Positions 9,482-51,805 of a stretch of DNA of 64,000 nucleotides are shown in pieces. The position numbers and the translations under genes were made by a program. Each line of letters begins with the position of its first letter. Positions within the stretch are counted from its first letter, which is position 1. The stretch is from Escherichia coli. Lineage in GTDB: Bacteria; Pseudomonadota; Gammaproteobacteria; Enterobacterales; Enterobacteriaceae. The notes below the pieces were generated by a model. The model ran no database searches, was not told the DNA's origin, and saw only the letters and a program-made list of their open reading frames with translations. The stretch lies in NCBI RefSeq assembly GCF_045037415.1, contig NZ_CP173438.1, one strand, 5' to 3'.

Positions 9482-10786
9482 TCAGGTCGAAAATAATCCT
9501 GGCAGCATCAGACTAAGCTGCGGGAAATAACAAATAATTGCCATTACTACAAACAATGCCAGAAACATCGGCAGTAATGGTTTTATTGCCCTGTCGATAC
9601 TGACCTTACCAATGCTGCATCCCACAAACAGAATGGTGCCGACAGGTGGTGTGCAAAGGCCAATGGTTAAGTTGAAAACCATAATGATGCCGAAGTGAAT
9701 CGGATCAATCCCCAGATGCTGGGCGATCGGCAGGAAAATAGGTGTAAATATCAGGATCGCCGGCGTGATATCCATAAAGGTACCAACGATCAACAGAATG
9801 ATATTGATAATAAACAGAATGACCCATTTGTTATCCGAAACGCGGGTAATCAGTTCGTTGATCAACTCAGGAACATCAGCATTCGTCATGGCCCATGACA
9901 TCCCCATCGAGCAGCCTACCAGTAACAGAACAATTGAACTGGTTACTACCGAATCTAACAGAATATCATTGAGCTTCTTAAGAGTGATTTCCCGGTAAAT
10001 CATCGCCAGGGCTAAACTATAAATTACCGCAATTGCCGATGCTTCTGTAGGCGTAAATACCCCCGCGATAATACCGCCAATAATGATAAAAATAAGCATC
10101 AGGCTAGGAATTGATTCGCGGAATACCTGTAAAAACTGACGGTAATTAATGCGCTCGGCCACCGGATAATGGTGACGTCGGGCATAAAGTGCAGCTACAA
10201 ACATTAAGGCAACAGCGGTGAGGATGCCCGGCAGATATCCAGCTAAGAACAACGCAGCGACAGAAGTCCCGCCACTGGCAAGGGAATAAACAATCAACAC
10301 ATTGCTCGGTGGGATCATCAGGCCAATGGGGGCAGAGGCAATATTAACCGCTGCTGAAAACGCCGGATCATATCCCTCTTTTTCTTGCAGTGGTGACATA
10401 ATCCCACCTACCGCGGCGGCTGACGCAACGGCTGAACCTGAAATCGCACCAAACAGTGTATTCGCGAGGATATTACAATGAGCCAGTGAGCCAGGAAGAC
10501 GCCCAACTAATGCTTGCGCCAGGTTAACCAGTCGTCTGGCTATACCACCGGTATTCATAATGTTTCCGGCTAACACGAAGAAGGGAATGGCTAATAGCGT
10601 AAAGCCATCCAGCCCCACAGTCATCTTTTGCGAAATCACAGAAATGGCGGCATCGGGTGGTAAGGCAGTAATAATAGATAACAGCGAAGAAAGACCAATC
10701 GCAAAAGTAATTGGCACACCTATTGCCAGCATGACGGCAAAACTGCCAAATAAAATTAAGACGGGGTAGATATATTCAAAGTCCAT
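9482..10786 (-). CDS. TRAP transporter large permease (DctM family)
   Basis: Track ORF 9482..10828 starts at TTG; preferred start is ATG at 10786 (MDFEYIYPVLILFG...), preceded by GAGGG. Polytopic hydrophobic protein typical of DctM. Confidence 0.85.
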   Translation of the reverse strand: MDFEYIYPVLILFGSFAVMLAIGVPITFAIGLSSLLSIITALPPDAAISVISQKMTVGLDGFTLLAIPFFVLAGNIMNTGGIARRLVNLAQALVGRLPGSLAHCNILANTLFGAISGSAVASAAAVGGIMSPLQEKEGYDPAFSAAVNIASAPIGLMIPPSNVLIVYSLASGGTSVAALFLAGYLPGILTAVALMFVAALYARRHHYPVAERINYRQFLQVFRESIPSLMLIFIIIGGIIAGVFTPTEASAIAVIYSLALAMIYREITLKKLNDILLDSVVTSSIVLLLVGCSMGMSWAMTNADVPELINELITRVSDNKWVILFIINIILLIVGTFMDITPAILIFTPIFLPIAQHLGIDPIHFGIIMVFNLTIGLCTPPVGTILFVGCSIGKVSIDRAIKPLLPMFLALFVVMAIICYFPQLSLMLPGLFST

Positions 10787-10796
10787 ATTTCCCTCG

Positions 10797-11279
10797 TTAA
10801 TGAAAATTCCGTTTACGATAGTTGTCAATAATATTCATTACTGAATACCAGACCAGAATAAGCCCACTGACAGGCATAACCCAATATACTTTATCCATTG
10901 GCCATTTTAATACTGGAGAGATTTGTCCAACATGTTGTGCTTTTTCAACAACAATATTCCCGCCATAGATCATGAAAATAACCGCAAAGACCGTAATAAT
11001 AATTTGGATAAAACTGTCAAGCGTCAGAACAGATGCAGCCGGAAGTTTTTGAGCCAACAAATCAATGGCCAGATGTTTTTTTAACCCCGCAGTATATACA
11101 CCGCCAAGTAAAATCATCCACATAAATAAAATCTGGGTGAACTCATCAAGCACAGTGCTGGGAGCGTTAAAAATAAAACGTGCAATAACTTGCCAGGTTA
11201 CGCAGAACACCATAATGGCGAGAATAATGCAGCAACATCCGGCAAGGATCTTATTAAGAATATGAGTGAGTGTTCGCAT
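10797..11279 (-). CDS. TRAP transporter small permease (DctQ family)
   Basis: 160-aa, 4-TM-like protein immediately upstream of the large permease, the canonical Q-M order. Confidence 0.8.
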   Translation of the reverse strand: MRTLTHILNKILAGCCCIILAIMVFCVTWQVIARFIFNAPSTVLDEFTQILFMWMILLGGVYTAGLKKHLAIDLLAQKLPAASVLTLDSFIQIIITVFAVIFMIYGGNIVVEKAQHVGQISPVLKWPMDKVYWVMPVSGLILVWYSVMNIIDNYRKRNFH

Positions 11280-11320
11280 AAGTCTTCCATGAAAAGGCAG
11301 GAATTACCTGCCCATTAGGG

Positions 11321-12304
11321 TTACATACTTTCTACTAGCTCAAGGTTTTTGGCTGATTGTGCATCTTTCGCCTTGAATTCATCGTATAACGGTTTGACGC
11401 GTTCTTTGAAAGCGGATTTATCAACATCAACAACTGTTGCGTTCATCCCTTTCATTTTGTCGTAGGCTTCTTTTTCAGCCGCAGGCCAGATGACGTCCTT
11501 CATCTGCATCATTGACTCATCGGCTGCTTTTAATAATGCCGTGCGCTCTTTATCACCAAGTTTATTTAACACGTCGGTGCTGATAATTAACACATCAGGT
11601 ACCATGGTGTGTTCATCACGTGAATAGACTTTTGCGACTTCGGCGTGACGCATATCGGCATAGACAACGGTATTGTTCTCTCCGCCATCAACCACTCCTT
11701 GCTGAAGTGCGGTGTAGAGTTCGCCTTGCGCCATCGGGGTAGCGACACCACCGAGTGCTTTCATCATTGCAATGGCGCTGGGGCTTTGTTGAACCCTGAT
11801 TTTCATTCCCGCTAAATCTTCAGGTTTTGTAATCGGTTTATTGGAATAAAAACTTCTCGCACCGCCGTCATAGTACGTAATACCAACAAAACCTTTGCTT
11901 TCTGATGAATTAAGTATTTTTTTACCTAAATCACTTTGCAGAACACGATAATAGTGATCACGGTCGCGGAATAAGAACGGCAGACTGAAAAGGCTGTAAT
12001 CCGGAGCAAATGATTCTAGTGATGCAGCATTAACCTTAACCATCTGTAATGCACCGGAGTTCATTAATTCCAGTGATTCACGCTCATTACCTAATGTCGC
12101 ATTTGGGTAAATGCGAATAACTAATTCACCATTAGAATACTCTTTGGTTTTATCCGCTAAATAGCTTAATGCTTTATGGACAGCATGGCTTTTATCCTGA
12201 TTATGACTCAGTTTTAATGTTGTTTTTGCCAGTGTGGTATTAGATATTAATAAACAACTGGTTAACAGCATAAGCGATGCCGTCAGAGGACGAAGTGCTT
12301 TCAT
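11321..12304 (-). CDS. TRAP transporter substrate-binding protein (DctP family)
   Basis: 327-aa ORF with signal peptide MKALRPLTASLMLLTSCLLISNTTLA; DctP-like size and position ahead of the Q and M genes. Confidence 0.82.
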   Translation of the reverse strand: MKALRPLTASLMLLTSCLLISNTTLAKTTLKLSHNQDKSHAVHKALSYLADKTKEYSNGELVIRIYPNATLGNERESLELMNSGALQMVKVNAASLESFAPDYSLFSLPFLFRDRDHYYRVLQSDLGKKILNSSESKGFVGITYYDGGARSFYSNKPITKPEDLAGMKIRVQQSPSAIAMMKALGGVATPMAQGELYTALQQGVVDGGENNTVVYADMRHAEVAKVYSRDEHTMVPDVLIISTDVLNKLGDKERTALLKAADESMMQMKDVIWPAAEKEAYDKMKGMNATVVDVDKSAFKERVKPLYDEFKAKDAQSAKNLELVESM

Positions 12305-12376
12305 ATCCTGCTCCTGGTTAATATAACAGAAACGATAAATACAGCGCTTTTCTATCGTTATAATAAAAAATAGTGA

Positions 12377-13387
12377 TTAATTCTCTGCCAGATAATGGAA
12401 TATTCCTGCCGGAACCGGAATACCTTCCTGTTGGCATTTTTCTTTGTAGTGCATTTGCGGATCGTTCGGCGCTAACACTTTTTCGACACCAGGAGCCGGT
12501 TTAACGGCATGCAGCTCCGTGACCATTTTCGCCATAGTTTTTGCAAAAACAGGATTGCCGAGCTTTTTCGGATCGATGGCAATAACCAAACTTGCCAGCT
12601 TACGCATCTTGTCATAATCACCATACATGCGAACAATATGGTTGCCAAAATTCGCATTCATCAGCACGCCAGTCAGTGCATCAATAGCCAGTGCAATGCC
12701 TGAACCTTTGTGTTGGCCGAAAGGTAGCAGGTTTTCAATCTTATACGGATCAGTGGTGCCATAACCGTTTTTATCTATCGCCAGTCCTTCACCAATATGT
12801 TTTCCGGTTTCCTTTGCATGAAGTATTTTGCCGAAAGCCGTGGCACTGGTCGCCATATCAACAATCATCGGATGGCTGTTTTCCACCGGGAAACCAAAGG
12901 CGATGGGGTTAGTTCCCAAAAAGCGCTCGGCGCCGCCATGGGGAGCCACACAGGTATCGGTTTGCGTCATTACGATAGCAACCAACCCTTTGTTGGTGAT
13001 CATCTCTGCAAAATAAGATAACGCACCACAGTGAGACGTGTTTTTAACGCTAACAAAACCGAGACCCTCTTGCTGGGCCAGTTTAATAGCGTGCTCAGTG
13101 GCGCTAATTAATGCGGAATGCCCCATTCCGTCGTCAGAGTCGAGAATGGCCACTGACGGTGAAATTTGCTCAATGCTAAACTGCGGGGCTTTATTTAACC
13201 CTCCGGCAGCAAGGCGGGTGCAATAATGTTCGACACGCATAACACCATGTGAATGCACACCGGTAATATCGGCATGTACTAAAACATCTGTCACCTGTTG
13301 TGTGGTGTCGGTATCCAGCCCGGCGGTATGTAATTTGTGGTGCACCAGTGATTTTAAATTTTCTTCACTGACATAAACAGTTGTCAT
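12377..13387 (-). CDS. Ldh_2 family (malate/L-lactate/2,3-diketogulonate-type) NAD(P)H-dependent oxidoreductase
   Basis: 336-aa ORF with the Ldh_2 motifs SHGV.R, GTNPIAFG, VDMATSA, HKGSG; resembles YiaK/AllD-type enzymes. Confidence 0.75.
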   Translation of the reverse strand: MTTVYVSEENLKSLVHHKLHTAGLDTDTTQQVTDVLVHADITGVHSHGVMRVEHYCTRLAAGGLNKAPQFSIEQISPSVAILDSDDGMGHSALISATEHAIKLAQQEGLGFVSVKNTSHCGALSYFAEMITNKGLVAIVMTQTDTCVAPHGGAERFLGTNPIAFGFPVENSHPMIVDMATSATAFGKILHAKETGKHIGEGLAIDKNGYGTTDPYKIENLLPFGQHKGSGIALAIDALTGVLMNANFGNHIVRMYGDYDKMRKLASLVIAIDPKKLGNPVFAKTMAKMVTELHAVKPAPGVEKVLAPNDPQMHYKEKCQQEGIPVPAGIFHYLAEN

Positions 13388-13397
13388 ATTTGTTCCC

Positions 13398-14414
13398 TTA
13401 AAAAGTGATCACACCCTTGACCATATTTTTATTTTCTACAACGTTACGCTGGTAATCTTCGCCAACACTAAAGAAATTGAACGCCTGGTTTTTCATTAAA
13501 TTTTCGTGAATTTTATTGCTGCGCATCAGTTCAATCACCAACGCAAAATCTTCCCGTGTGGCATTGCGGCTGCTGAGTAACGTTGTCTCTTTTTTATGGA
13601 AGGTCGGATCGTCAATAACAAGTTCACCAATGTACAAACCGATGAAAACAATTTTGCCGCCATGACGAATAAGATTGACATCATGACTCATTGAAGCTTT
13701 ATTTCCCGTCGCATCCAGTACTACGCAAGCCAGTTCGCCTCCAAAGGCCTCACGAAGCGCGGCAATAAAATCTTCCTGTGTGGGATTGAAGGCATTAATC
13801 GCCAGATGATCCACAACGTGCTGGCGACGTTGACAGTCAATATCAGCAACAACAACATGTGCCCCTTTAGCCCGGGCGATGGCTGCGGTAGCCAGACCGA
13901 TTGGCCCAGCGCCAATCACCAGTACGTTTTGTTCAGCCTTGATCTCTGCCCGACGAACGGCATGTGCACCAATGGCGAAACATTCAACCAATGCTCCGGC
14001 ACTGTCGCTGACCTCGTCAGGGAGAGGCACAAGGTTGTCTTCACGTACCGCAAGGTACTCACTAAAACCCCCATCCTGATGCACGCCATACAGCGAAACA
14101 CGTTCGCAGCAGTTCGTTTTCTCTTCCCGACAGGCTGCGCACTCGCCACACGGAATGCATGGGATGACGGAATAGCGCTGGCCTGATTGTGCTGTTTGGC
14201 ACTGGCTGCCTCGCGAAACCGCTTCGGCGCATATTTCATGACCTAATACACGTGGGTAGCTAAAAAAAGGCTGTCTGCCGGCAAAAGCGTGAATATCAGT
14301 ACCACAAATACCCACAGCTTTTATTTTTAACAGCACTTCATTATCTGCTGGTGTGGGAATATCCTTTTCCACATATTCCATAACGCCAGGCTGCTGACAA
14401 ATTAATGTTTTCAT
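13398..14414 (-). CDS. Zinc-dependent medium-chain alcohol/polyol dehydrogenase
   Basis: 338-aa ORF with GHE and cysteine-cluster zinc motifs (CGTDIH, ...CGECAAC...) and Rossmann GAGPIG; start ATG overlaps the upstream stop (ATGA). Confidence 0.8.
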   Translation of the reverse strand: MKTLICQQPGVMEYVEKDIPTPADNEVLLKIKAVGICGTDIHAFAGRQPFFSYPRVLGHEICAEAVSRGSQCQTAQSGQRYSVIPCIPCGECAACREEKTNCCERVSLYGVHQDGGFSEYLAVREDNLVPLPDEVSDSAGALVECFAIGAHAVRRAEIKAEQNVLVIGAGPIGLATAAIARAKGAHVVVADIDCQRRQHVVDHLAINAFNPTQEDFIAALREAFGGELACVVLDATGNKASMSHDVNLIRHGGKIVFIGLYIGELVIDDPTFHKKETTLLSSRNATREDFALVIELMRSNKIHENLMKNQAFNFFSVGEDYQRNVVENKNMVKGVITF

Positions 14415-15883
14415 TTCTGCTCATCCGATAATAATTGGCTGATGGTGGCCTTGATGCCTTTGTTTTTTATATTTGCAAAGGCGATTTTTATTTCATTTAT
14501 AAATGGCTGATGGTTGCTTAAATCACCAAATATGGCGCTAAGGTGCAGTAATGCGAGCGCCTGTTGCCATGCGTCTTGTTGTTCCTTTATTAGCGCCTGA
14601 AATTGTTCATTCATTGGATCCGCGACAGACTGGCTTTTCTCAACAGCTTCAATGACATAATGCAACCAACCAGCAACGAGCAGTGACAGAACAGCATTGT
14701 TTTGTTTTTGCTGATGCAATTTCAGCCAGGGCGTCAGCGCACGCTGGGGAAGCTTTTGTGAACCGTCCATAGCGATTTGCCCGGTACGGTGTGCAACATT
14801 ACGGTTGCTAAAGCGTTCAATTAACAGGTCGGCGTATTCCTGGGCGTCGATATTTAAGTCTGGATTAAGTGTTCGGGCTTGTTCATTAATCATCAGTTGG
14901 CGGGTAATGGAACGAAAATCAGCGTCTTCCATGCATTGCCAGATAAATTCATAGCCAGCCAGTGAGCCGTTATAGGCCAGAAATGAATGGCCACCGTTTA
15001 ACATGCGTAACTTCATCTCTTCATAAGGCTGAACATTGCTGACAAACATCGCGCCTGCTTTATCCCATTGTGGTCGCCCATGCACAAAATTATCTTCAAT
15101 CACCCACTGACGAAATGATTCGCAGACGATCCCGCAGGGATCGGCATAACCGGTTTTAGTTTCCAGTAAGGCGAATTGCGATTCGGTCATTGCCGGAACA
15201 ATGCGATCGACCATCGTGCCTGGAAATGAGACATTTTCTTCGATCCACTGAGCCAGGGGCTGGTCCAGTTGTCGGGCAAAACCGAGAACGGCATTTCGCG
15301 TCAGATGCCCATTGTCTGGCAAGTTGTCGCAGGAGAGCACGCTAAAAGCGGCGAGCCCTGCCGCTTTACGTTGTTGCAAAGCACAGACGATCAAGCCAAT
15401 AGCCGACTGAGGCGCATCCGGGTTTTGTAGATCGTGTTTGATTAATCCATTGGTGAGATCAAGCGATCGCGTTTGCGAATCGAGACAATAGCCTTTCTCG
15501 GTGATGGTTAATGAAACGATTTTTACCTGAGGTTCAGTCAATTTCTGGATTGCTGCGGCAATGCCATCCACGGGGGTATGAATACCGCCAGTTACCGAAC
15601 GCACAAGGCGTGAGGTAGATTGCGATGCAGATGTTTCCACAACCGAAAACAGCCCATTTTGCGCATTTAAGTTTTCGATCAGTTGAGCATCACCAAACAG
15701 GTTGATCTCAAAGATCCCCCAGTGGGTGTCAGAAAGCTGATTAGTGAGATCCGTGTAGACAGCCTGGTGTCCGCGATGAAAAGCGCCAAAACCAATATGG
15801 ACAATATCTGCCTGTAACCCGCCCCGAGGCCAGGTGGTTACCTGATCATAGTGGGCGGCATCGATACTTTCGTTCCCTGACAT
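14411..15883 (-). CDS. Mannitol-dehydrogenase-family oxidoreductase (UxuB/UxaB-like mannonate/fructuronate-type)
   Basis: Track ORF 14411..15919 starts at TTG; preferred start is ATG at 15883 (MSGNES...) preceded by AGGAG. Strongly UxuB-like blocks: GFGAFHRGHQ, SLTITEKGY, SCDNLPDNG, TMVDRIVP, KLRMLNGGHS, QIAMDGSQKLPQR. Confidence 0.85.
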   Translation of the reverse strand: MSGNESIDAAHYDQVTTWPRGGLQADIVHIGFGAFHRGHQAVYTDLTNQLSDTHWGIFEINLFGDAQLIENLNAQNGLFSVVETSASQSTSRLVRSVTGGIHTPVDGIAAAIQKLTEPQVKIVSLTITEKGYCLDSQTRSLDLTNGLIKHDLQNPDAPQSAIGLIVCALQQRKAAGLAAFSVLSCDNLPDNGHLTRNAVLGFARQLDQPLAQWIEENVSFPGTMVDRIVPAMTESQFALLETKTGYADPCGIVCESFRQWVIEDNFVHGRPQWDKAGAMFVSNVQPYEEMKLRMLNGGHSFLAYNGSLAGYEFIWQCMEDADFRSITRQLMINEQARTLNPDLNIDAQEYADLLIERFSNRNVAHRTGQIAMDGSQKLPQRALTPWLKLHQQKQNNAVLSLLVAGWLHYVIEAVEKSQSVADPMNEQFQALIKEQQDAWQQALALLHLSAIFGDLSNHQPFINEIKIAFANIKNKGIKATISQLLSDEQK

Positions 15884-16205
15884 TATGCTCTTACTCCTGG
15901 TGGCTTGTGTGTATACCAATTTACATAATTCATTAGACCAAAAACAGAGAGATGCATCACGCTTGCAGAGAAAGGTAAAAGTACGAAACAGAACAACAAG
16001 GCGTTATTTATATCTGTATCAATGAGTTATATGAATAAAATGAAAGGAAAGTTTTTTAGAGGTCAGTTTTTAGGATAATTGCCGCTAATCTAAGATATCT
16101 GATGATAGTCGATTTATTAGACCAATTAAAAAGAGAGCGTGTACCAGTGGAGGGCGGAAGGCAGAGCCGGCGTTATTTTTTCCGCCAGCTCTGGACTAAT
16201 GAAGG

Positions 16206-16955
16206 TTAACGAGCGAAGAAAAAGTCATCAAAATCGCTGATGGAAGCGTCTTGTTTGAAGATTTTGATCAGTTCATTTTTGCTGTTTTCCAGATGTCTCC
16301 AGGACGCTTCCCTGGCGAGCTCTGAATCTTTCTGTTGCAGAGCCAGGAAAATAGCCCGGTGATCTTCCAGCCATTGCAGACGCAAATGCTTTTCATGCAG
16401 GTACTTGTAGTTAAGTTTCTTCCAGCGGGGGTTTTCTGTACGAACTGCCCGCCATAATTCAGCAGCTTGTTTGATGAGTACCCGATTTTGCGTCGCTTCG
16501 GCAATAATGCTATGAAATCGGTGATCCAGGTCTTCAAATTTATCACTTTCCGCAGCGATGGCTTTTTCCTGTAATCCAATGATTTTCTTCAACTCTTGTA
16601 ACTCGTTAAAGCTGATCTGGCTGGCAGCAAAACCGGTAATATTGCTCTCAATTACCTGACGTGCCTGTAACAGTTCAAACGGGCCAATTTCTGAATAGGG
16701 CATTAATGATTTCTGGTTGAGCTTATCGGTGGAGTCGACAAAGAAAATCCCTGACCCTTGCTTCACATTCAATACGCCTTTCAGTTCCAGCATAATGATG
16801 GCTTCACGAATGGTAGTTCGGCTGGTATTAAACCGCTCGCTCAGTTCACGTTCTGAAGGTAAGCGTTCTCCGGCCTTAAATACGCCTGAATACAGCAGCT
16901 CTTCAATCTGTAGACCAATATCGTAATAGCGGCGCTTTGTAATAACCTGTTCCAT
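16206..16955 (-). CDS. GntR/FadR-family transcriptional regulator
   Basis: 249-aa ORF with N-terminal GntR helix-turn-helix (LPSERELSERFNTSRTTIREAI) and an FCD-like C-terminal domain; sits upstream of the TRAP/dehydrogenase operon on the same strand. Confidence 0.8.
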   Translation of the reverse strand: MEQVITKRRYYDIGLQIEELLYSGVFKAGERLPSERELSERFNTSRTTIREAIIMLELKGVLNVKQGSGIFFVDSTDKLNQKSLMPYSEIGPFELLQARQVIESNITGFAASQISFNELQELKKIIGLQEKAIAAESDKFEDLDHRFHSIIAEATQNRVLIKQAAELWRAVRTENPRWKKLNYKYLHEKHLRLQWLEDHRAIFLALQQKDSELAREASWRHLENSKNELIKIFKQDASISDFDDFFFAR

Positions 16956-27534: not shown

Positions 27535-27539
27535 AAATG

Positions 27540-29181: not shown

Positions 29182-30222
29182 TCATTTATCGGAAGACGCC
29201 TGCCACAAATTCAGCTCTCCATCGGCGATATGCTGATCAATCTGCGCCAGCTCCTCGGTGCTAAATGTCAGATTATTCAGCGCCTGCACGTTCTCCTCAA
29301 GTTGCTCCGCGCGGCTGGCACCAATCAATACCGACGTCACGCGATCATCTTTCAGCAACCAGCTTAACGCCATTTGCGCCATTGATTGTCCACGCTGCTG
29401 TGCCATTTCATTCAATAACCGCAGGCTGTTGAGGTTGGCTTCGGTGAGCATTTTCGGCGTCAGACCACGAACTTTATTCCCTTCACGATGCATCCGTGAA
29501 TCTTGCGGAATACCGTTGAGATATTTTCCGGTCAGCAATCCCTGTGCCAGTGGAGTAAAGGCAATGCAGCCCACGCCGTTATTTTGCAGGGTATCCAGCA
29601 GGCCGCTTTTATCCACCCAGCGGTTCAGTAAATTGTACGAAGGTTGATGAATTAACAGCGGAATTTTCCACTCGCGCAGCAACTCGACCATTTTTTGCGT
29701 CCGCTCTGGCGAGTAAGAGGAGATCCCGACATACAGCGCCTTACCGCTTTGTACAGCATGAGCCAGCGCAGAGGCGGTTTCTTCCATCGGCGTATTTTCA
29801 TCGACGCGATGAGAGTAAAAGATATCGACATACTCAAGCCCCATACGCTTCAGGCTTTGGTCGAGGCTGGCGAGCAGGTATTTACGTGAGCCGCCAGAGC
29901 CGTATGGGCCGGGCCACATATCGTATCCGGCTTTGGTAGAGATAATCAGTTCATCGCGATAAGCGGCAAAATCCTCGCGCAGCAGGCGACCAAAGTTCTC
30001 TTCTGCGCTTCCTGGAGGCGGCCCGTAGTTGTTGGCTAAATCAAAGTGCGTAATGCCTAAATCAAACGCTTTACGCAGGATCGCACGCTGTGATTCCAGC
30101 GCGTTAACGTGACCGAAATTGTGCCATAAACCGAGCGATAACGCGGGCAGGCGTAAACCACTTTTTCCGCAATAGCGGTACTGCATCTGCCCGTAACGTT
30201 CGGGATTCGCTAACCAGACCAT
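29182..30222 (-). CDS. gpr: L-glyceraldehyde 3-phosphate reductase (aldo-keto reductase, YghZ)
   Basis: 346-aa ORF MVWLANPERYGQMQYRYCGKSGLRLPALSLGLW... Confidence 0.93.
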   Translation of the reverse strand: MVWLANPERYGQMQYRYCGKSGLRLPALSLGLWHNFGHVNALESQRAILRKAFDLGITHFDLANNYGPPPGSAEENFGRLLREDFAAYRDELIISTKAGYDMWPGPYGSGGSRKYLLASLDQSLKRMGLEYVDIFYSHRVDENTPMEETASALAHAVQSGKALYVGISSYSPERTQKMVELLREWKIPLLIHQPSYNLLNRWVDKSGLLDTLQNNGVGCIAFTPLAQGLLTGKYLNGIPQDSRMHREGNKVRGLTPKMLTEANLNSLRLLNEMAQQRGQSMAQMALSWLLKDDRVTSVLIGASRAEQLEENVQALNNLTFSTEELAQIDQHIADGELNLWQASSDK

Positions 30223-30378
30223 GACCTCTCCTTTCCATCGTTCAATTTCGAAACAATGTTTCTAGTTTAGCGATTCGCCAGCGCGTATCCCGTAGTCTGG
30301 CTCACAGAGTGACGAAAAACTGGGCAAAAACACGCGCTTATGCTTTGCTTAAAAAAACACCAGTTGAGGAGTGCAACG

Positions 30379-31266
30379 ATGCCGCGTTTAACCGCCAAAG
30401 ATTTCCCACAAGAGTTGCTGGATTACTACGACTATTACGCTCACGGGAAAATCTCGAAACGTGAGTTCCTCAACCTTGCGGCGAAGTATGCGGTGGGCGG
30501 GATGACGGCATTAGCGCTGTTTGATTTGCTCAAGTCAAATTATGCGTTGGCGACTCAGGTAGAGTTTACCGACCCGGAAATTGTTGCTGAGTACATCACG
30601 TATCCCTCGCCAAATGGTCACGGCGAGGTACGGGGTTATCTGGTGAAGCCCGCAAAAATGAGCGGCAAAACGCCAGCCGTGGTAGTGGTGCATGAGAATC
30701 GAGGGCTGAATCCGTATATCGAAGATGTGACGCGGCGAGTGGCGAAGGCTGGGTACATCGCCCTGGCGCCAGACGGTTTAAGCTCAGTAGGTGGCTATCC
30801 TGGTAACGATGATAAAGGCCGCGAACTGCAACAGCAGGTTGATCCAACCAAACTGATGAATGATTTCTTTGCCGCAATTGAGTTTATGCAACGCTATCCG
30901 CAAGCGACAGGCAAAGTGGGTATTAGCGGATTTTGCTATGGCGGGGGCGTATCGAACGCGGCAGCAGTCGCGTATCCGGAACTGGCCTGCGCGGTGCCGT
31001 TTTATGGGCGTCAGGCACCCACTGCCGATGTGGCGAAGATTGAAGCGCCTTTACTGCTCCACTACGCTGAACTGGATAGCCGAATCAACGAGGGCTGGCC
31101 CGCTTACGAGGCGGCGTTGAAAGCCAATAATAAGGTCTATGAGGCGTATATATATCCGGGGGTTAATCACGGATTCCATAATGATTCCACGCCCCGTTAT
31201 GACAAATCTGCCGCCGATCTTGCCTGGCAAAGGACGCTGAAATGGTTCGATAAATATCTCTCCTGA
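30379..31266 (+). CDS. yghX: Dienelactone-hydrolase-family protein YghX, apparently intact
   Basis: Track ORF 30340..31266; preferred start ATG at 30379 (MPRLTAKDF...) preceded by GAGGA. Continuous ~295-aa alpha/beta hydrolase with nucleophile elbow GFCYGG. Confidence 0.8.
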   Translation: MPRLTAKDFPQELLDYYDYYAHGKISKREFLNLAAKYAVGGMTALALFDLLKSNYALATQVEFTDPEIVAEYITYPSPNGHGEVRGYLVKPAKMSGKTPAVVVVHENRGLNPYIEDVTRRVAKAGYIALAPDGLSSVGGYPGNDDKGRELQQQVDPTKLMNDFFAAIEFMQRYPQATGKVGISGFCYGGGVSNAAAVAYPELACAVPFYGRQAPTADVAKIEAPLLLHYAELDSRINEGWPAYEAALKANNKVYEAYIYPGVNHGFHNDSTPRYDKSAADLAWQRTLKWFDKYLS

Positions 31267-31384
31267 TGGGTTTATCTCTTACAGGATTACGTCTTAAACA
31301 AGCATGAAAAAATAGCGTGCGCAAATGTCGTTCTTTGCCTAAAATATCGCTATATATGACAATATATAGCGAATGAGGTGAACG

Positions 31385-31672
31385 ATGAATAACCATTTTG
31401 GTAAAGGCTTAATGGCGGGATTAAAAGCAACGCATGCCGACAGTGCGGTTAATGTGACAAAATTCTGTGCCGATTATAAACGCGGTTTTGTATTAGGCTA
31501 CTCACACCGGATGTACGAAAAGACCGGAGATCGCCAGCTTAGCGCCTGGGAAGCGGGTATTCTGACGCGCCGTTATGGACTGGATAAAGAGATGGTAATG
31601 GATTTCTTTCGTGAGAATAATTCCTGTTCTACGTTGCGCTTTTTTATGGCCGGTTATCGCCTAGAAAATTGA
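31385..31672 (+). CDS. yghW: DUF2623 protein YghW
   Basis: 95-aa [30 protein letters not shown]... Confidence 0.8.
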
Positions 31673-44825: not shown

Positions 44826-44856
44826 TCACCAAAATGGATAGGGGATGATTTAACGA

Positions 44857-45630
44857 ATGGACGCACTACAAACACAAACTGTTAATAGTACAACCGCGCC
44901 GCAGCCCAACTACATTCCGGGGCTGATTGCGGTGGTCGGGTGTGATGGCACCGGTAAATCCACACTGACCACCGACCTCGTGAAATCGCTGCAACAACAC
45001 TGGCAAACCGAGCGGCGCTATCTGGGGCTGCTCTCGGGCGAAGACGGCGACAAAATCAAACGATTGCCGTTGGTTGGCGTCTGGCTCGAAAGGCGACTGG
45101 CGGCCAAATCATCGAAAACCCAAAGCATGAAAACCCAAAGCATGAAAACCAAATCTCCAGCGCTATGGGCGGCGGTGATTATGTACTGCTTCTCGCTGCG
45201 AAGAATGGCGAATCTACGCAAGGTTCAGCGACTGGCGCAAAGTGGCGTTCTGGTGGTCAGCGATCGCTTCCCGCAGGCTGAAATTTCGGGCTTTTATTAT
45301 GACGGACCGGGGATCGGCGTCGAACGTGCGACCGGGAAAATCAGCATGTTTCTGGCGCAGCGCGAACGGCGTTTATACCAAAAAATGGCGCAATACCGTC
45401 CTGAATTAATCATTCGTTTGGGGATTGATATTGATACTGCCATCTCCCGCAAGCCTGACCATGACTATGCCGAGCTGCAGGACAAAATCGGCGTCATGTC
45501 GACGATTGGCTATAACGGCACAAAAATTCTTGAGATTGATTCCAGAGCGCCCTACAGCGAAGTGCTGGAACAGGCACAGAAGGCGGTTTCTCTGGTTGCC
45601 ATCGTTTCTGACCGCCGAAGTTTAACTTAA
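44857..45630 (+). CDS. yghR: P-loop kinase-like protein YghR (carries an internal 5-aa tandem repeat)
   Basis: 257-aa ORF MDALQTQTVNSTTAPQPNYIPGLIAVVGCDGTGKST...; SDRFPQ and SRKPDH motifs. Confidence 0.85.
   Translation: MDALQTQTVNSTTAPQPNYIPGLIAVVGCDGTGKSTLTTDLVKSLQQHWQTERRYLGLLSGEDGDKIKRLPLVGVWLERRLAAKSSKTQSMKTQSMKTKSPALWAAVIMYCFSLRRMANLRKVQRLAQSGVLVVSDRFPQAEISGFYYDGPGIGVERATGKISMFLAQRERRLYQKMAQYRPELIIRLGIDIDTAISRKPDHDYAELQDKIGVMSTIGYNGTKILEIDSRAPYSEVLEQAQKAVSLVAIVSDRRSLT
45115..45150 (+). repeat. In-frame 15-bp tandem duplication inside yghR
   Basis: AAAACCCAAAGCATG occurs twice in tandem, followed by a partial third copy (AAAACC), encoding ...KTQSMKTQSMKTKS... Confidence 0.9.
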
Positions 45631-45675
45631 GGCTGGCGGGATACTTTTTACTATCAACGATAAGGTCAGGCTGAA

Positions 45676-47025
45676 TTGGCGGGTTTTAACATCAAACATT
45701 GGTTTGCAGATGGCGCGTTTCGCACCATTATTCGCAATAGCGCCTGGTTAGGCTCCAGTAATGTCGTGAGCGCTTTACTGGGTCTGTTGGCGCTCTCGTG
45801 TGCCGGTAAAGGGATGACGCCCGCCATGTTTGGCGTACTGGTGATTGTACAATCGTACGCCAAGTCGATCAGCGATTTTATTAAGTTTCAGATATGGCAG
45901 CTGGTGGTTCAGTACGGAACACCAGCATTAACCAACAATAATCCGCAGCAATTCCGCAATGTCGTCTCATTTTCCTTCTCGCTGGATATCGTCAGCGGCG
46001 CGGTGGCGATTGTCGGCGGCATTGCCTTACTCCCTTTTCTTTCCCATTCATTAGGTCTGGATGACCAAAGCTTTTGGCTGGCAGCGCTGTATTGCACGCT
46101 CATTCCTTCAATGGCTTCCTCCACGCCGACCGGCATTCTGCGTGCGGTAGATCGCTTCGATCTAATTGCTGTACAGCAAGCGACGAAACCTTTTCTGCGC
46201 GCAGCGGGGAGCGTCGTAGCCTGGTATTTTGACTTTGGTTTTGCGGGTTTTGTTATTGCCTGGTACGTGTCGAATCTGGTTGGCGGCACCATGTACTGGT
46301 GGTTTGCCGCGCGCGAATTACGCCGCAGAAATATCCATAACGCCTTCAAATTGAATCTGTTTGAGTCTGCCCGACACATTAAAGGCGCGTGGAGTTTTGT
46401 CTGGTCAACCAACATTGCCCACTCCATCTGGTCGGCGCGTAACTCGTGCAGCACAGTGCTGGTGGGGATCGTGTTAGGACCCGCTGCCGCCGGGTTATTT
46501 AAAATCGCCATGACATTCTTCGACGCCGCCGGAACGCCAGCGGGTTTACTGGGCAAAAGTTTTTACCCAGAGGTGATGCGTTTAGATCCGCGCACCACCA
46601 GACCGTGGTTGTTAGGCGTGAAGTCAGGTTTACTGGCGGGCGGAATTGGTATTCTGGTGGCGCTCGCGGTGTTGATCGTCGGCAAGCCGCTTATTTCGCT
46701 GGTGTTTGGCGTTAAGTATCTCGAAGCGTATGACCTGATTCAGGTGATGCTGGGCGCAATTGTGATTTCGATGCTGGGCTTCCCACAGGAGTCATTGCTA
46801 TTGATGGCGGGAAAACAGCGCGCTTTTCTCGTGGCGCAAACCATCGCCTCAATCGGCTACATCGTATTGCTGTTCATGTTCTGTCATCTGTTTGGCGTGC
46901 TGGGAGCAGCGTTTGCTTATTTCGGTGGGCAATGTCTGGATGTGGTGCTCTCGTTAATTCCGACCTTAAAGGCATTTTTTCAGCGCCATTCCTTGCTTTA
47001 TAACGCAGCCGGAGAGAAATCCTGA
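45676..47025 (+). CDS. yghQ: MOP-superfamily (Wzx-like) polytopic membrane protein YghQ; start uncertain
   Basis: 449-aa track ORF beginning at TTG 45676 with AAGG 9 nt upstream; highly hydrophobic multi-TM protein. Stop overlaps the start of the next gene (TGATG). Confidence 0.75.
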   Translation: MAGFNIKHWFADGAFRTIIRNSAWLGSSNVVSALLGLLALSCAGKGMTPAMFGVLVIVQSYAKSISDFIKFQIWQLVVQYGTPALTNNNPQQFRNVVSFSFSLDIVSGAVAIVGGIALLPFLSHSLGLDDQSFWLAALYCTLIPSMASSTPTGILRAVDRFDLIAVQQATKPFLRAAGSVVAWYFDFGFAGFVIAWYVSNLVGGTMYWWFAARELRRRNIHNAFKLNLFESARHIKGAWSFVWSTNIAHSIWSARNSCSTVLVGIVLGPAAAGLFKIAMTFFDAAGTPAGLLGKSFYPEVMRLDPRTTRPWLLGVKSGLLAGGIGILVALAVLIVGKPLISLVFGVKYLEAYDLIQVMLGAIVISMLGFPQESLLLMAGKQRAFLVAQTIASIGYIVLLFMFCHLFGVLGAAFAYFGGQCLDVVLSLIPTLKAFFQRHSLLYNAAGEKS

Positions 47026-47849
47026 TGATGAGAAAATATTTCCCGCTTGAGGCGAGCGAGCGTTTATTTGTTGCAGTTGAAGAAGATGATGTCGTTGATG
47101 CACAGGTCAGTTTGCCGCCGACTATCGCACTAAGTTGTACCACCGAAATCATCCATGATAATTACGCGTTATGCCTGCAATTCTGGCTCAATGGCGTCAA
47201 TCGCCAGGAGTTACTGCGTTTAATATGCAAACAGGCCAAAGGCGATGAGCTGACTGCTGATGAGCGCAAACAATTTAAATACATGCGAGCGCGCTACAAG
47301 CACCTGCGTTTTGCGCAACGGCTGTATTTAAAGAAGCATCAGGCCGGATTTTTATTCGGCAAAACGACCGTTTTTTTGGGGCGTTTTCAGGACGGTTTTC
47401 GTAACGGTAAGAAAAATATTGTGTCGTATTACGGCAACTTGTTACGGGTTTATTTAAGCTCTCCGGTCTGGTCGTTGGTGAACTATTCATTACGCCATAG
47501 CCAGTTAGAAAGCGTAAGCGGTTTTATTGCCTATCGGCAAAAGCAAATGCATACCCTGAAAGAGATAATTGCCAAACCGCGACTCACCGGCAGGGAATTT
47601 CATGATGTGCGAAAAATCATCAGCCAGCAGGTTTCTTATTACGACACCTTAAGATCGCTTGATCCTGAAAATAAAGAGGCGTTACAGATTTCCCGCTTCC
47701 TCGCCGCCATTAATGGCCTGATGGGGGATAAACACGACGACATGGTGGCGGATGATATGGAAAACCGCCAGTCGTATGATGCACCGGTGGCGCTGGATAG
47801 CGATATTCGCCAGCGCTTAGAGCTGCTGATTTCGCGTTTTCCGCTATAA
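47025..47849 (+). CDS. Hypothetical soluble protein, no recognisable family
   Basis: 274-aa ORF MMRKYFPLEASERLFVAVEEDD...; coding assignment rests on length, coupling to yghQ (1-nt overlap) and operon context. Confidence 0.6.
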   Translation: MMRKYFPLEASERLFVAVEEDDVVDAQVSLPPTIALSCTTEIIHDNYALCLQFWLNGVNRQELLRLICKQAKGDELTADERKQFKYMRARYKHLRFAQRLYLKKHQAGFLFGKTTVFLGRFQDGFRNGKKNIVSYYGNLLRVYLSSPVWSLVNYSLRHSQLESVSGFIAYRQKQMHTLKEIIAKPRLTGREFHDVRKIISQQVSYYDTLRSLDPENKEALQISRFLAAINGLMGDKHDDMVADDMENRQSYDAPVALDSDIRQRLELLISRFPL

Positions 47850-47857
47850 CCGGAGCA

Positions 47858-48421
47858 ATGATGTCATCTCGTTTGATTATTGCGCTGATTATCATGCTCT
47901 TAGCCCAGGGTGTGCAGGCACACAATTTTGTCACTGGCAAAACGGTTACCCCCGTTTATATCCAGGAAGGCGGCGAGCTGCTTCTGAATAGCGACGACGA
48001 AATTCACTACCAAAAGTGGAACAGCACACAGCTGGCGGGAAAAGTCCGCATTATCCAGTATATCGCCGGGCGTAAGTCGGCGAAGAAAAAGAACTCACTG
48101 TTAATTAAAGCGGTTGAAGCGGCAAACTTTCCGCAGGATCGTTTTCAGCCCACCACCATTGTGAACACCGATGATGCCATCTTTGGTACTGGCTATTTTG
48201 TCGTTGGCAAAATCGAAAAAAATAAACGCCGCTATCCGTGGGCGCAATTCGTTATTGACGGCAATGGACTGGGACGCGTTGCCTGGCGGTTGCCGGAGCA
48301 GAGTTCAACCATTCTGGTGCTGAATAAAGACGGGCAAATTCAGTGGGCAAAGGACGGCAGCCTGACGCCGGAAGAGGTAGATCATGTCATTGCGCTGGCG
48401 CAGAAACTGATCAATGAATAA
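47858..48421 (+). CDS. YtfJ-family periplasmic protein
   Basis: 187-aa ORF with signal peptide MMSSRLIIALIIMLLAQGVQA and GGAG Shine-Dalgarno; body resembles my recollection of YtfJ (QKWNS..LAGKVR..QYIAGR, TTIVNTDDAI, LNKDG..QWAKDG.LTPEEV). Confidence 0.65.
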   Translation: MMSSRLIIALIIMLLAQGVQAHNFVTGKTVTPVYIQEGGELLLNSDDEIHYQKWNSTQLAGKVRIIQYIAGRKSAKKKNSLLIKAVEAANFPQDRFQPTTIVNTDDAIFGTGYFVVGKIEKNKRRYPWAQFVIDGNGLGRVAWRLPEQSSTILVLNKDGQIQWAKDGSLTPEEVDHVIALAQKLINE

Positions 48422-48451
48422 AAAATTCAAAGGATTGAGGGTGTTAGTGAG

Positions 48452-49522
48452 ATGAAGCTGGTTGAACACTACATCATGCGTGGTACGCGCCGTCTGGTGC
48501 TGATTATCGTCGGTTTTCTGATCTTTATTTTCGCCAGCTACTCCGCACAGCGTTATCTGACCGAAGCGGCAAATGGGACCTTAGCTCTTGATGTTGTGCT
48601 GGATATCGTTTTCTACAAAGTGCTGATTGCACTGGAGATGTTGTTACCTGTTGGTCTGTATGTGTCAGTTGGCGTGACGCTAGGGCAGATGTATACCGAC
48701 TCGGAAATTACCGCTATCTCTGCGGCGGGGGGCAATCCGGGACGCTTGTACAAAGCCGTTCTTTATCTGGCGATACCGCTAAGTATTTTTGTCACCCTTC
48801 TGTCGATGTATGGTCGGCCGTGGGCTTATGCGCAGATTTATCAACTGGAGCAACAGTCGCAGTCGGAGCTGGATGTTCGCCAGTTGCGGGCAAAGAAATT
48901 TAACACTAACGATAACGGACGAATGATCCTTTCGCAGACGGTTGATCAGGATAATAATCGCCTGACTGACGCGCTGATTTATACTTCTACTGCCAATCGA
49001 ACCCGCATTTTCCGCGCCCGTTCGGTTGATGTGGTTGACCCATCACCTGAGAAACCGACCGTTATGTTGCATAACGGGACCGCCTATCTTCTCGATCATC
49101 AGGGGCGTGACGACAACGAACAGATCTACCGTAATCTGCAATTACATCTGAATCCGCTGGATCAAAGCCCTAACGTCAAACGCAAAGCAAAATCGGTCAC
49201 GGAGCTGGCGCGCTCAGCCTTTCCTGCCGATCATGCCGAACTGCAATGGCGACAAAGCCGTGGCCTGACAGCATTGTTGATGGCGCTGCTGGCCATTTCA
49301 TTAAGTCGGGTAAAACCGCGGCAAGGGCGATTTTCAACGTTATTGCCACTGACATTGCTGTTTGTTGCCATTTTTTATGGCGGCGACGTCTGCCGTACGC
49401 TGGTGGCTAACGGTGCGATTCCCCTCATTCCTGGTTTGTGGTTAGTACCCGGACTCATGCTAATGGGCCTGCTGATGCTGGTCGCACGCGACTTCTCTTT
49501 GCTGCAGAAATTTTCCCGATGA
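48452..49522 (+). CDS. LptF/LptG-family (YjgP/YjgQ) permease paralog
   Basis: 356-aa ORF: three N-terminal TM segments, a central soluble domain and C-terminal TM segments, the architecture of LPS-export permeases. Confidence 0.75.
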   Translation: MKLVEHYIMRGTRRLVLIIVGFLIFIFASYSAQRYLTEAANGTLALDVVLDIVFYKVLIALEMLLPVGLYVSVGVTLGQMYTDSEITAISAAGGNPGRLYKAVLYLAIPLSIFVTLLSMYGRPWAYAQIYQLEQQSQSELDVRQLRAKKFNTNDNGRMILSQTVDQDNNRLTDALIYTSTANRTRIFRARSVDVVDPSPEKPTVMLHNGTAYLLDHQGRDDNEQIYRNLQLHLNPLDQSPNVKRKAKSVTELARSAFPADHAELQWRQSRGLTALLMALLAISLSRVKPRQGRFSTLLPLTLLFVAIFYGGDVCRTLVANGAIPLIPGLWLVPGLMLMGLLMLVARDFSLLQKFSR

Positions 49523-50598
49523 ATGTTTTCAGTCGCTATTTAATCCGTCATCTCTTTCTCGGTTTTGCCGCCGCCGCAGGGCTATTGCTGCCGCTTTTTA
49601 CCACCTTCAACCTGATTAACGAACTGGATGATGTCAGCCCGGGCGGTTATCGCTGGACTCAGGCGGTGCTGGTGGTGCTGATGACCTTACCGCGTACACT
49701 GGTCGAACTTTCGCCGTTTATCGCATTATTGGGAGGGATTGTTGGCCTGGGGCAGTTATCGAAAAACAGTGAGCTTACCGCCATTCGCAGCACTGGGTTT
49801 TCTATCTTCCGTATTGCACTGGTGGCGCTGGTTGCCGGGATATTGTGGACTGTTTCGTTAGGCGCGATAGATGAGTGGGTGGCGTCGCCATTGCAGCAAC
49901 AGGCGCTGCAAATCAAATCGACTGCCACCGCGTTGGGGGAGGACGATGACATTACCGGCAATATGCTTTGGGCCAGGCGCGGTAATGAATTTGTGACGGT
50001 GAAATCGCTGAACGAGCAGGGCCAGCCTGTGGGCGTGGAGATATTTCATTATCGCGACGATCTCTCGCTCGAATCCTACATTTTTGCACGCAGTGCCTCC
50101 ATTGAAGACGACAAAACGTGGATCCTGCATGGTGTGAATCATAAAAAATGGTTGAATGGCAAAGAAACGCTGGAAACATCAGATAATCTTGCCTGGCAAT
50201 CGGCCTTCACCAGTATGGATCTTGAAGAGTTATCGATGCCGGGGAATACTTTTTCTGTCCGTCAGCTTAATCATTACATCCATTATTTGCAGGAAACCGG
50301 ACAACCCAGCAGCGAATACCGCCTTGCACTGTGGGAAAAACTGGGGCAACCGATCCTGACCCTGGCGATGATTTTGCTGGCTGTGCCGTTCACCTTTAGC
50401 GCCCCGCGCTCGCCAGGGATGGGTAGCCGTCTCGCTGTAGGCGTCATCGTTGGCTTACTCACCTGGATCAGCTATCAAATCATGGTCAATCTGGGATTGT
50501 TATTTGCGTTGAGCGCACCTGTTACCGCGCTCGGTTTACCGGTAGCGTTTGTGTTGGTGGCGTTGAGCCTGGTGTATTGGTATGACAGACAACATTAA
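49519..50598 (+). CDS. LptF/LptG-family (YjgP/YjgQ) permease paralog, LptG-like
   Basis: Track ORF 49438..50598; preferred start ATG at 49519 (MNVFSRYLIRHLFLGFAAAAGLLLPLFTTFNLINELDDV...) overlapping the upstream stop (ATGA). The N-terminus and LSKNSELTAIRSTGFS block parallel E. coli LptG. Confidence 0.78.
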   Translation: MNVFSRYLIRHLFLGFAAAAGLLLPLFTTFNLINELDDVSPGGYRWTQAVLVVLMTLPRTLVELSPFIALLGGIVGLGQLSKNSELTAIRSTGFSIFRIALVALVAGILWTVSLGAIDEWVASPLQQQALQIKSTATALGEDDDITGNMLWARRGNEFVTVKSLNEQGQPVGVEIFHYRDDLSLESYIFARSASIEDDKTWILHGVNHKKWLNGKETLETSDNLAWQSAFTSMDLEELSMPGNTFSVRQLNHYIHYLQETGQPSSEYRLALWEKLGQPILTLAMILLAVPFTFSAPRSPGMGSRLAVGVIVGLLTWISYQIMVNLGLLFALSAPVTALGLPVAFVLVALSLVYWYDRQH

Positions 50599-50632
50599 AC
50601 CCGCCGTGGCGCAACACCACAGCGGGCTCACA
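50599..50632. terminator. Stem-loop between the convergent LptG-like gene and the AOS-like gene
   Basis: CCCGCCGTGG-CGCAACA-CCACAGCGGG, imperfect 10-bp inverted repeat filling the 34-bp gap between two convergent stop codons. Confidence 0.45.
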
Positions 50633-51805
50633 TTACTGCTTCAGAGTAGCAAATGCCTGAATGATGGCATCGATTTGCTCACGACTGTGGGCAGCGTTTA
50701 CGCTACAGCGCAGCAGAGTGATGCCTGCAGGCGCGGCAGGTGGCAGGATAAGATTCACATAAACGCCCAGCGAAATAAGCTCGCGCCAGATGCGTAAACC
50801 TTCCTCTTTCGAACCGATTATTACTGGCACTACCGGGCTAATATGTGAACTTAACTCATAACCCAGTTTTTGCAGACCGTCATACAGATGGTTGGCGTTA
50901 TCCATCAGTTTTTGCCGCAGCTCTGGTTGTGTGGCAATGGTTCTTAACGACGAGCGCACGGTCGCAATGCAGGACGGAGAAGGAGAGGCGGTAAAAATAT
51001 ACGGGCGGCTGCCGTAGCGCAGCACTTCCATCGCTTCCGAACCGACAGCAAAACCGCCAATCGAGGCCAGACTTTTACTGAAAGTACCAACGATAATATC
51101 CACATCATCTTCAACGCCAACGGCTTCAGCCAGTCCGCGCCCCGTTGCGCCTAACACGCCAAACGAATGCGCTTCATCGACAATCAAATAACCACCGAGA
51201 CGACGTTTGATATCAACAATTTCCGCTAACGGCGCAACGTCACCGAGCATGCTGTAGATGCCCTCAACGATGATAATCGCCTCTTTCGCCCGTTCACCGA
51301 GGCGAACCATGCGCCGTTCCAGATCTTTAGCATCGTTATGGCGGAAACGAATAATTTCTGCGCCACCGAGAGAACAGGCGTCATAAATACTGGCGTGGCT
51401 GTCGGCATCCAGTAACACCACGGCGTTATGGTCGGCAAGTGCGCTGATGACGCCTAAATTAGCGGTATAACCGGTTGAAAAAACGATAGCGGTAGGGCGA
51501 TTGAAAAACTCGGCAATCTCTTTCTCTAACGCCAGGTGCGGCGCATAACTGCCGTTTGCCATACGAGAACCGGTGGTGCCGGTGCCTTGGGCCGCTAACG
51601 CTGCCTGACCTTCGGCGATGGCATCATGATTAAAGGTTAAACCGAGATAATTATTGGTCCCGGCCAGAATCACTTTTTTATTGCCGATCCGACCTTCGGT
51701 GGCGGAATACACTTCATCAATACAGGTGCCAAACGGTGTTAACCCGTTGTCACTAAATTGCAGTCGCTCGCCAGCAAGGCGCGCATATTTATCGTATAGC
51801 CCCAT
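50633..51805 (-). CDS. PLP-dependent alpha-oxoamine synthase (serine palmitoyltransferase / BioF / Kbl family)
   Basis: 390-aa ORF with VDEAHSFG and the PLP-lysine block GTFSKS; start ATG overlaps the ACP stop (TAATG). Confidence 0.85.
   Translation of the reverse strand: MGLYDKYARLAGERLQFSDNGLTPFGTCIDEVYSATEGRIGNKKVILAGTNNYLGLTFNHDAIAEGQAALAAQGTGTTGSRMANGSYAPHLALEKEIAEFFNRPTAIVFSTGYTANLGVISALADHNAVVLLDADSHASIYDACSLGGAEIIRFRHNDAKDLERRMVRLGERAKEAIIIVEGIYSMLGDVAPLAEIVDIKRRLGGYLIVDEAHSFGVLGATGRGLAEAVGVEDDVDIIVGTFSKSLASIGGFAVGSEAMEVLRYGSRPYIFTASPSPSCIATVRSSLRTIATQPELRQKLMDNANHLYDGLQKLGYELSSHISPVVPVIIGSKEEGLRIWRELISLGVYVNLILPPAAPAGITLLRCSVNAAHSREQIDAIIQAFATLKQ

Follow-up and report, generated by a model that had tools for sequence, protein, structure and literature searches.

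An uninterrupted yghX reading frame of the dienelactone hydrolase family in Escherichia coli and its frameshifted counterpart in K-12

The yghX locus and its coding sequence

The stretch of Escherichia coli DNA analyzed here (the window, 64,000 nucleotides in all) carries yghX on its plus strand, with gpr lying divergently upstream and yghW and the hyb operon lying downstream. In a six-frame list of open reading frames, the longest frame at this locus begins with ATG at 30340, ends at 31266, and specifies 308 amino acids, which recovers exactly the coordinates of the uninterrupted yghX frame described in a first-pass annotation of this DNA. The length given in that annotation, roughly 295 to 308 codons, brackets the truth; 295 is the better figure, the probable start being 30379 rather than 30340.

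30340 to 31266, plus strand: longest open reading frame, 308 codons, from the open reading frame list
30366 to 30371, plus strand: Shine-Dalgarno sequence GAGGAG, read from the sequence, 7 nt upstream of the ATG at 30379
30379 to 31266, plus strand: yghX coding sequence from its probable true start, as in the RefSeq annotation of identical sequence, with an ATG shared with K-12 yqhI

We favored 30379 as the start because the Shine-Dalgarno sequence, the RefSeq coding sequence, and the start of the K-12 small-protein gene yqhI all coincide there. The 308-codon version starting at 30340 was rejected: it lacks a Shine-Dalgarno sequence, the protein is 295 amino acids long in most of its named public copies, and 30379 corresponds to the start of yqhI, for which there is experimental support. 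In strain 4/1-1, RefSeq annotates yghX as a coding sequence of 888 nt (295 codons plus a stop; WP_001296414.1, "YghX family hydrolase"), and positions 30200 to 31400 of the window are 100% identical to that strain and also, among several genomes, to an O25b:H4-ST131 strain. A match to this 1,201-bp stretch was present in 5,425 of 5,426 complete E. coli genomes. At least 1,000 public contigs encode exactly the same 295-amino-acid YghX.

We looked for a stop codon or frameshift inside 30379 to 31266 and found none. A promoter scan of positions 30150 to 31450 returned no sigma-70-like site 5' of yghX above the shuffle expectation. That the frame is open by chance was ruled out by its matches to the Pfam DLH family, NCBIfam NF041440, and PDB entry 4ZV9. 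We are therefore highly confident that 30379 to 31266 is an intact, wild-type yghX encoding a 58-residue N-terminal leader followed by a catalytic domain with the dienelactone hydrolase fold. The gene belongs to the core genome, and its allele in the window is the common one, which makes the finding ordinary.

Several features of the surrounding DNA were recorded along the way. In the spacer between yghX and yghW, positions 31347 to 31372 form a perfect 11-bp inverted repeat, TCGCTATATAT-GACA-ATATATAGCGA, that ends 12 nt before the yghW ATG (31385), just upstream of the yghW Shine-Dalgarno sequence. This repeat was flagged on the minus strand by a terminator scan and resembles an operator or a hairpin. 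In Citrobacter koseri, yghX and yghW are separated by a gene for a methyl-accepting chemotaxis protein (5105 to 6745 of the contig), which is not so in E. coli. The spacer between yghA and exbD contains, in K-12, 233 bp that have no counterpart in the window (at 27535/27536), probably an intergenic repeat element.

Farther from yghX, the gene content of two intervals (about 10200 to 16955 and about 44850 to 51400) was read by collinearity with the annotation of strain 4/1-1, to which the former aligns at 99.5% identity with no gaps. That interval contains a TRAP transporter (three genes), an Ldh-family oxidoreductase, a Zn-alcohol dehydrogenase, and a mannitol-dehydrogenase-family gene, along with a GntR regulator adjoining ygiQ, and it looks like a sugar-acid utilization cluster. 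The latter interval, 3' of yghS, holds two hypothetical genes, a gene for an "LPS biosynthesis protein," a YtfJ-family gene, lptF, lptG, and a serine palmitoyltransferase gene (spt), the last of which is unusual for E. coli. The essential lptF/lptG pair is normally located elsewhere, and the pair seen here may be a second copy.

Fold, catalytic residues, and likely chemistry

The first-pass annotation had assigned the protein to the dienelactone hydrolase family, and on this point Pfam, NCBIfam, and structure agree. YghX matches Pfam DLH (PF01738) over the full length of the profile (1 to 217 of 217; E=3.6e-47; 161.2 bits against a gathering cutoff of 21) and the NCBIfam model "YghX family hydrolase" (NF041440) over profile positions 1 to 292 of 292, with 579.9 bits against a curated cutoff of 460. 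Residues 59 to 294 are covered at 97% identity (E=3e-159) by PDB 4ZV9, the structure of the E. coli O157:H7 Sakai orthologue, which is titled "uncharacterized protein." An AlphaFold2 model of YghX (mean pLDDT, 96.6) superimposes on 4ZV9 with an rmsd of 1.0 Å and on ClcD from Pseudomonas (1DIN) with a TM score of 0.85 (ClcD-normalized) and an rmsd of 2.3 Å.

Nothing different in kind separates the window gene from the orthologue behind 4ZV9, which is the same gene in the same neighborhood (gpr divergent from yghX, then yghW and hyb). Compared with the K-12 allele (frame repaired) and the O157 allele, the window protein shows five to seven amino acid differences; S53P, T118A, S183T, Y229F, and S234T distinguish it from both, and V69F and S135N are further differences from O157 only.

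Catalytic residues were placed by a HMMER alignment to a ClcD variant, and their conservation was counted over 30 diverse relatives.

30553 to 31263, plus strand: alpha/beta-hydrolase (DLH) catalytic domain, residues 59 to 295, from Pfam, equivalence to 4ZV9, and the AlphaFold2 model
30694 to 30696, plus strand: Glu106, aligned with ClcD Glu36; E in 24 of 30 relatives
30928 to 30945, plus strand: GFCYGG nucleophile elbow, residues 184 to 189, a G-x-C-x-G motif in the ClcD alignment
30934 to 30936, plus strand: Cys186 codon, aligned with ClcD position 123; C in 28 of 30
31075 to 31077, plus strand: Asp233, catalytic acid, aligned with ClcD Asp171; D in 30 of 30
31168 to 31170, plus strand: His264, catalytic base, aligned with ClcD His202; H in 28 of 30

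The GFCYGG motif had already been picked out as resembling a nucleophile elbow, and the position of Cys186 opposite ClcD residue 123 bears this out. Aligned in this way, YghX is a cysteine hydrolase of the dienelactone hydrolase fold with a Cys186-His264-Asp233 triad and Glu106. By analogy with ClcD, attack by Cys186 would produce a covalent acyl-cysteine intermediate, and YghX would hydrolyze an ester, thioester, or lactone bond.

The resemblance to ClcD (Pseudomonas knackmussii, PDB 1DIN, EC 3.1.1.45) extends to the alpha/beta-hydrolase fold, the G-x-C-x-G elbow, the triad, and the equivalents of Glu36 and Arg81. The two proteins share only about 25% identity, however, and ClcD has no counterpart of the 58-residue leader. 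They also differ at the carboxylate-binding pair of ClcD-type EC 3.1.1.45 enzymes, which is incomplete in YghX: the Arg81 equivalent is kept as Arg148, but Arg206 is replaced by Asn268, which lies within an H-N-D motif conserved in the family. Because of this replacement, the substrate of YghX is probably not a dienelactone, and the protein is probably not a strict dienelactone hydrolase. Nor does yghX belong to a chlorocatechol operon of the ClcD type, as its neighbors gpr, yghW, and the hyb operon include no (chloro)catechol pathway.

Searches of the literature on yghX, on 4ZV9, and on dienelactone hydrolases combined with the twin-arginine pathway found no functional, localization, or substrate study of YghX. 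In the only assay that came to light, purified EcoDLH (4ZV9) had no detectable activity on two phosphotriester substrates (bioRxiv 10.1101/2025.10.30.685675), a negative that is uninformative about the native substrate. A role as a cPHB polymerase was once suggested, with the GXCXG motif as its sole basis (PMC3709699). Where we call YghX functional, we infer this from purifying selection on the gene together with its conserved catalytic residues.

The K-12 allele, its frequency, and its ancestry

In the MG1655 annotation, yghX (b4658) is a pseudogene, with a 47-amino-acid coding sequence, yqhI (b4755), at its 5' end. The first-pass annotation had described the K-12 gene as a frameshifted pseudogene, which is correct as far as the status goes, but there are two lesions (of 2 bp and 1 bp) rather than one. 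It had also proposed an alignment with the K-12 region as a check, which would have refuted the proposal had the K-12 allele been identical in frame. In that alignment the K-12 allele is frameshifted: it differs from the window gene by 52 substitutions and the two lesions.

30487 to 30489, plus strand: codon 37 (TAT), intact in the window; in K-12 a 2-bp deletion shifts the frame and yields the 47-amino-acid YqhI
30847 to 30849, plus strand: codon 157 (ACC), intact in the window; in K-12 a 1-bp deletion, the second lesion

The window gene has neither deletion and hence is not the pseudogene allele. Since the K-12 deletions total 3 bp, the frame is regained past codon 157, and the 120 codons in between are out of frame and stop-rich. 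Translation of the K-12 locus from the shared ATG gives MPRLTAKDFPQELLDYYDYYAHGKISKREFLNLAAK, then CGRRDDGISVV, then a stop. YqhI (NC_000913.3, 3147597 to 3147740) is thus made up of 36 residues of the YghX leader (window positions 30379 to 30486) and 11 out-of-frame residues, 47 in total. The yghX/yqhI locus of K-12 is orthologous to yghX of the window, has its start codon in common with it, and encodes in YqhI a translated remnant of the YghX N terminus. YqhI has been detected in K-12 by chromosomal SPA tagging (PMC6001520), which implies that the yghX promoter and ribosome-binding site still work in that strain. Given that YqhI begins with the N-terminal residues of YghX, the Pfam domain PF23678 ("YqhI-like") represents the leader with which YghX-family proteins start.

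Allele frequencies in complete E. coli genomes were obtained with allele-specific probes of 39 to 41 nt that had no 28-mer in common across the indel. At codon 157, the intact form was present in 4,221 genomes and the K-12-type form in 1,199, accounting for 5,420 of the 5,425 genomes with the locus. The K-12-type 2-bp deletion at codon 37 was present in 1,248 genomes; here three 39- to 41-mers cover 4861 of 5425 genomes (2782 + 1248 + 831), the remainder carrying other nearby SNPs. K-12-type lesions therefore occur in about 22 to 23% of the 5,426 complete genomes, and about 77% are intact at the lesion sites. PGAP likewise flags further genomes that carry the K-12 allele as "frameshifted." One strain, JKHS006 (NZ_CP147065.1, 680 to 1565), has only the 2-bp deletion in a gene otherwise identical to that of K-12, and some 45 to 50 genomes seem to be of the same type. 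This allele, together with the excess of genomes carrying the 2-bp deletion (1,248) over those carrying the 1-bp deletion (1,199), suggests a stepwise decay that began with the 2-bp deletion and continued with the 1-bp deletion on an already dead gene.

Outside the species, C. koseri has an intact 295-amino-acid orthologue (91% identity) in the same gene context as E. coli, exbBD...gpr<>yghX...yghW-hybOA, and E. fergusonii has an intact orthologue of 295 amino acids as well. Orthologues of 294 to 298 amino acids are found across E. fergusonii, Pseudescherichia, Enterobacter, Kosakonia, and Leclercia, and a search of outgroup orthologues for the K-12 deletions found none. The pN/pS of the window gene was 0.039 against K-12 (lesion codons skipped), 0.053 against O157, and 0.084 against C. 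koseri, all as raw values, the Jukes-Cantor dS against C. koseri being saturated (pS 0.78). Because the outgroups are intact and pN/pS lies between 0.04 and 0.08, these comparisons identify the intact form of yghX as ancestral and under strong purifying selection and the K-12 allele as derived and recent.

The opposite polarity, in which the frameshifted form came first and the window regained an open frame by secondary repair, is refuted by the outgroup comparison, and we consider it next to impossible. At both lesion sites C. koseri and O157 carry the same bases as the window, full-length orthologues of 294 to 298 amino acids are widespread in the Enterobacteriaceae, and the intermediate with the 2-bp deletion exists in JKHS006, otherwise identical to K-12; nothing was found in favor of such a repair. 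It could also be argued that the gene, though open in the window, is dispensable or already nonfunctional throughout the species, with K-12 simply further along in its decay. The frameshifted allele in about 22 to 23% of complete genomes does imply that loss of yghX is tolerated, the K-12 pseudogene is in routine use as a neutral integration site in strain engineering (PMC7677707), and the gene has no known phenotype or substrate. Against this, pN/pS is low both between intact alleles and toward C. koseri, the catalytic residues are intact, and 295-amino-acid orthologues have been retained across the Enterobacteriaceae. Moreover, the frameshifted genomes have the same two lesions in common, which makes a single lineage event likelier than repeated decay. 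On balance, we regard species-wide loss of function as improbable and retain the view of a selected, ancestral gene that probably decayed in one lineage.

The window allele itself is diverged and B2-like: it stands 4 to 5% from the K-12 sequence (pS 0.19), whereas O157-type and K-12 alleles are separated by only 14 substitutions. It has kept the ancestral state, but the K-12 sequence does not descend directly from it. The first-pass description of a "functional ancestral allele" consequently holds for the intact state, which is shared with C. koseri, E. fergusonii, and about 77% of genomes, and it does not hold as a statement of direct descent; its "functional" part is based on the purifying selection and the conserved catalytic residues noted above.

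The N-terminal leader and the standing of YqhI

The catalytic domain is preceded by 58 residues that are absent from the 4ZV9 crystal construct, which begins directly after A-L-A58.

30379 to 30552, plus strand: N-terminal leader, residues 1 to 58, of which residues 1 to 36 match Pfam PF23678 ("YqhI-like"); A-L-A precedes T59
30454 to 30471, plus strand: S-K-R-E-F-L, residues 26 to 31, a KR variant of the twin-arginine box in the family alignment

Across 30 relatives (35 to 68% identity), the leader follows the consensus LYDxYxH-x4-RRxFL, then an Ala/Gly/Thr-rich stretch, then A-x-A, with Ala at -3 in 18 of 30 and at -1 in 23 of 30. Among family representatives with an N terminus, the box reads RR in 55 of 73 and KR in 15 of 73, the latter including E. 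coli and its closest relatives; the other 3 of 73 have different pairs. We think it somewhat probable, from these conserved features, that the leader is a twin-arginine translocation (Tat)-type signal, in which RRxFL takes a KR form and A-x-A marks the cleavage site, and that the folded enzyme is periplasmic. The predicted leader would then be cleaved after Ala58, and mature YghX, starting at T59, would reside in the periplasm. The literature searches turned up no export experiment on YghX. Tat signal peptides with a natural KR variant do exist, for example in Salmonella TtrB. They resemble the YghX leader in having Lys-Arg in place of Arg-Arg within S-x-R-x-F-L, in the moderate hydrophobicity of the h-region, and in ending with A-x-A; the YghX leader is unlike them in its unusually conserved LYDxYxH n-region and in that its export is only predicted.

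A competing possibility, to which we give appreciable weight while doubting it, is that the enzyme is intact and functional but cytoplasmic, with the "YqhI-like" region forming a folded three-helix appendage such as a cap or an interaction module. The AlphaFold2 model shows three defined helices within residues 1 to 58 (residues 11 to 21, 27 to 37, and 44 to 51; pLDDT 92 to 95), and helices of such high pLDDT, combined with a conserved LYDxYxH upstream of the RR/KR box, would be unusual for a cleaved signal peptide; pLDDT is, however, a local measure, which limits the weight of these helices. E. coli YghX reads S-K-R-E-F-L-N, which departs from the two-arginine pattern S/T-R-R-x-F-L-K, and its uncharged h-region spans 12 residues (12 to 28 in relatives) where the threshold was at least 13. 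Tat-signal HMMs from Pfam and NCBIfam, run on the first 60 to 70 residues with E values up to 10, gave no match for the E. coli leader; on three RR homologues they gave only subthreshold hits to two (UCR_Fe-S_N, E=0.0096; formate_TAT, E=0.023), too weak a response for these models to serve as a test. At short range, the leader has also evolved no faster than the rest of the protein: E. coli and C. koseri differ at 4 of its 58 residues and at 24 of 237 in the mature part. The family as a whole points the other way: mean identity to E. coli over the 30 relatives is 32% for the leader and 46% for the mature domain, which folds and crystallizes without the leader, and distant relatives keep the RRxFL box, the Ala/Gly/Thr-rich h-region, and the small residues at -3 and -1.

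If the Tat-type signal is preferred, a broader picture can be drawn, which we put forward tentatively and with slightly less than even confidence. The YghX family would comprise Tat-exported periplasmic cysteine hydrolases, with a KR variant in the enterobacterial members and a LYDxYxH n-region, and YqhI of K-12 would be the mere, still translated stump of an export leader rather than a gene in its own right. In that case the conserved n-region might dock a dedicated partner or proofreading factor, despite the enzyme's lack of a cofactor.

The family model, the RefSeq annotation, the crystal structure, the pseudogene status in K-12, and YqhI are all already on record. What is mildly new is only that the "YqhI-like" Pfam domain is read here as a conserved leader of the Tat type and K-12 YqhI as its translated remnant. 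The catalogued K-12 protein YqhI is best read as the N-terminal remnant of YghX, and the value of this is mainly one of annotation hygiene. At yghX the K-12 reference is the exception, its double frameshift being present in roughly a fifth of complete genomes, and K-12 results that use yghX as a neutral site say nothing about the role of the gene in natural isolates. Most E. coli, the B2-like strain of the window included, keep a constrained hydrolase gene with a solved structure.
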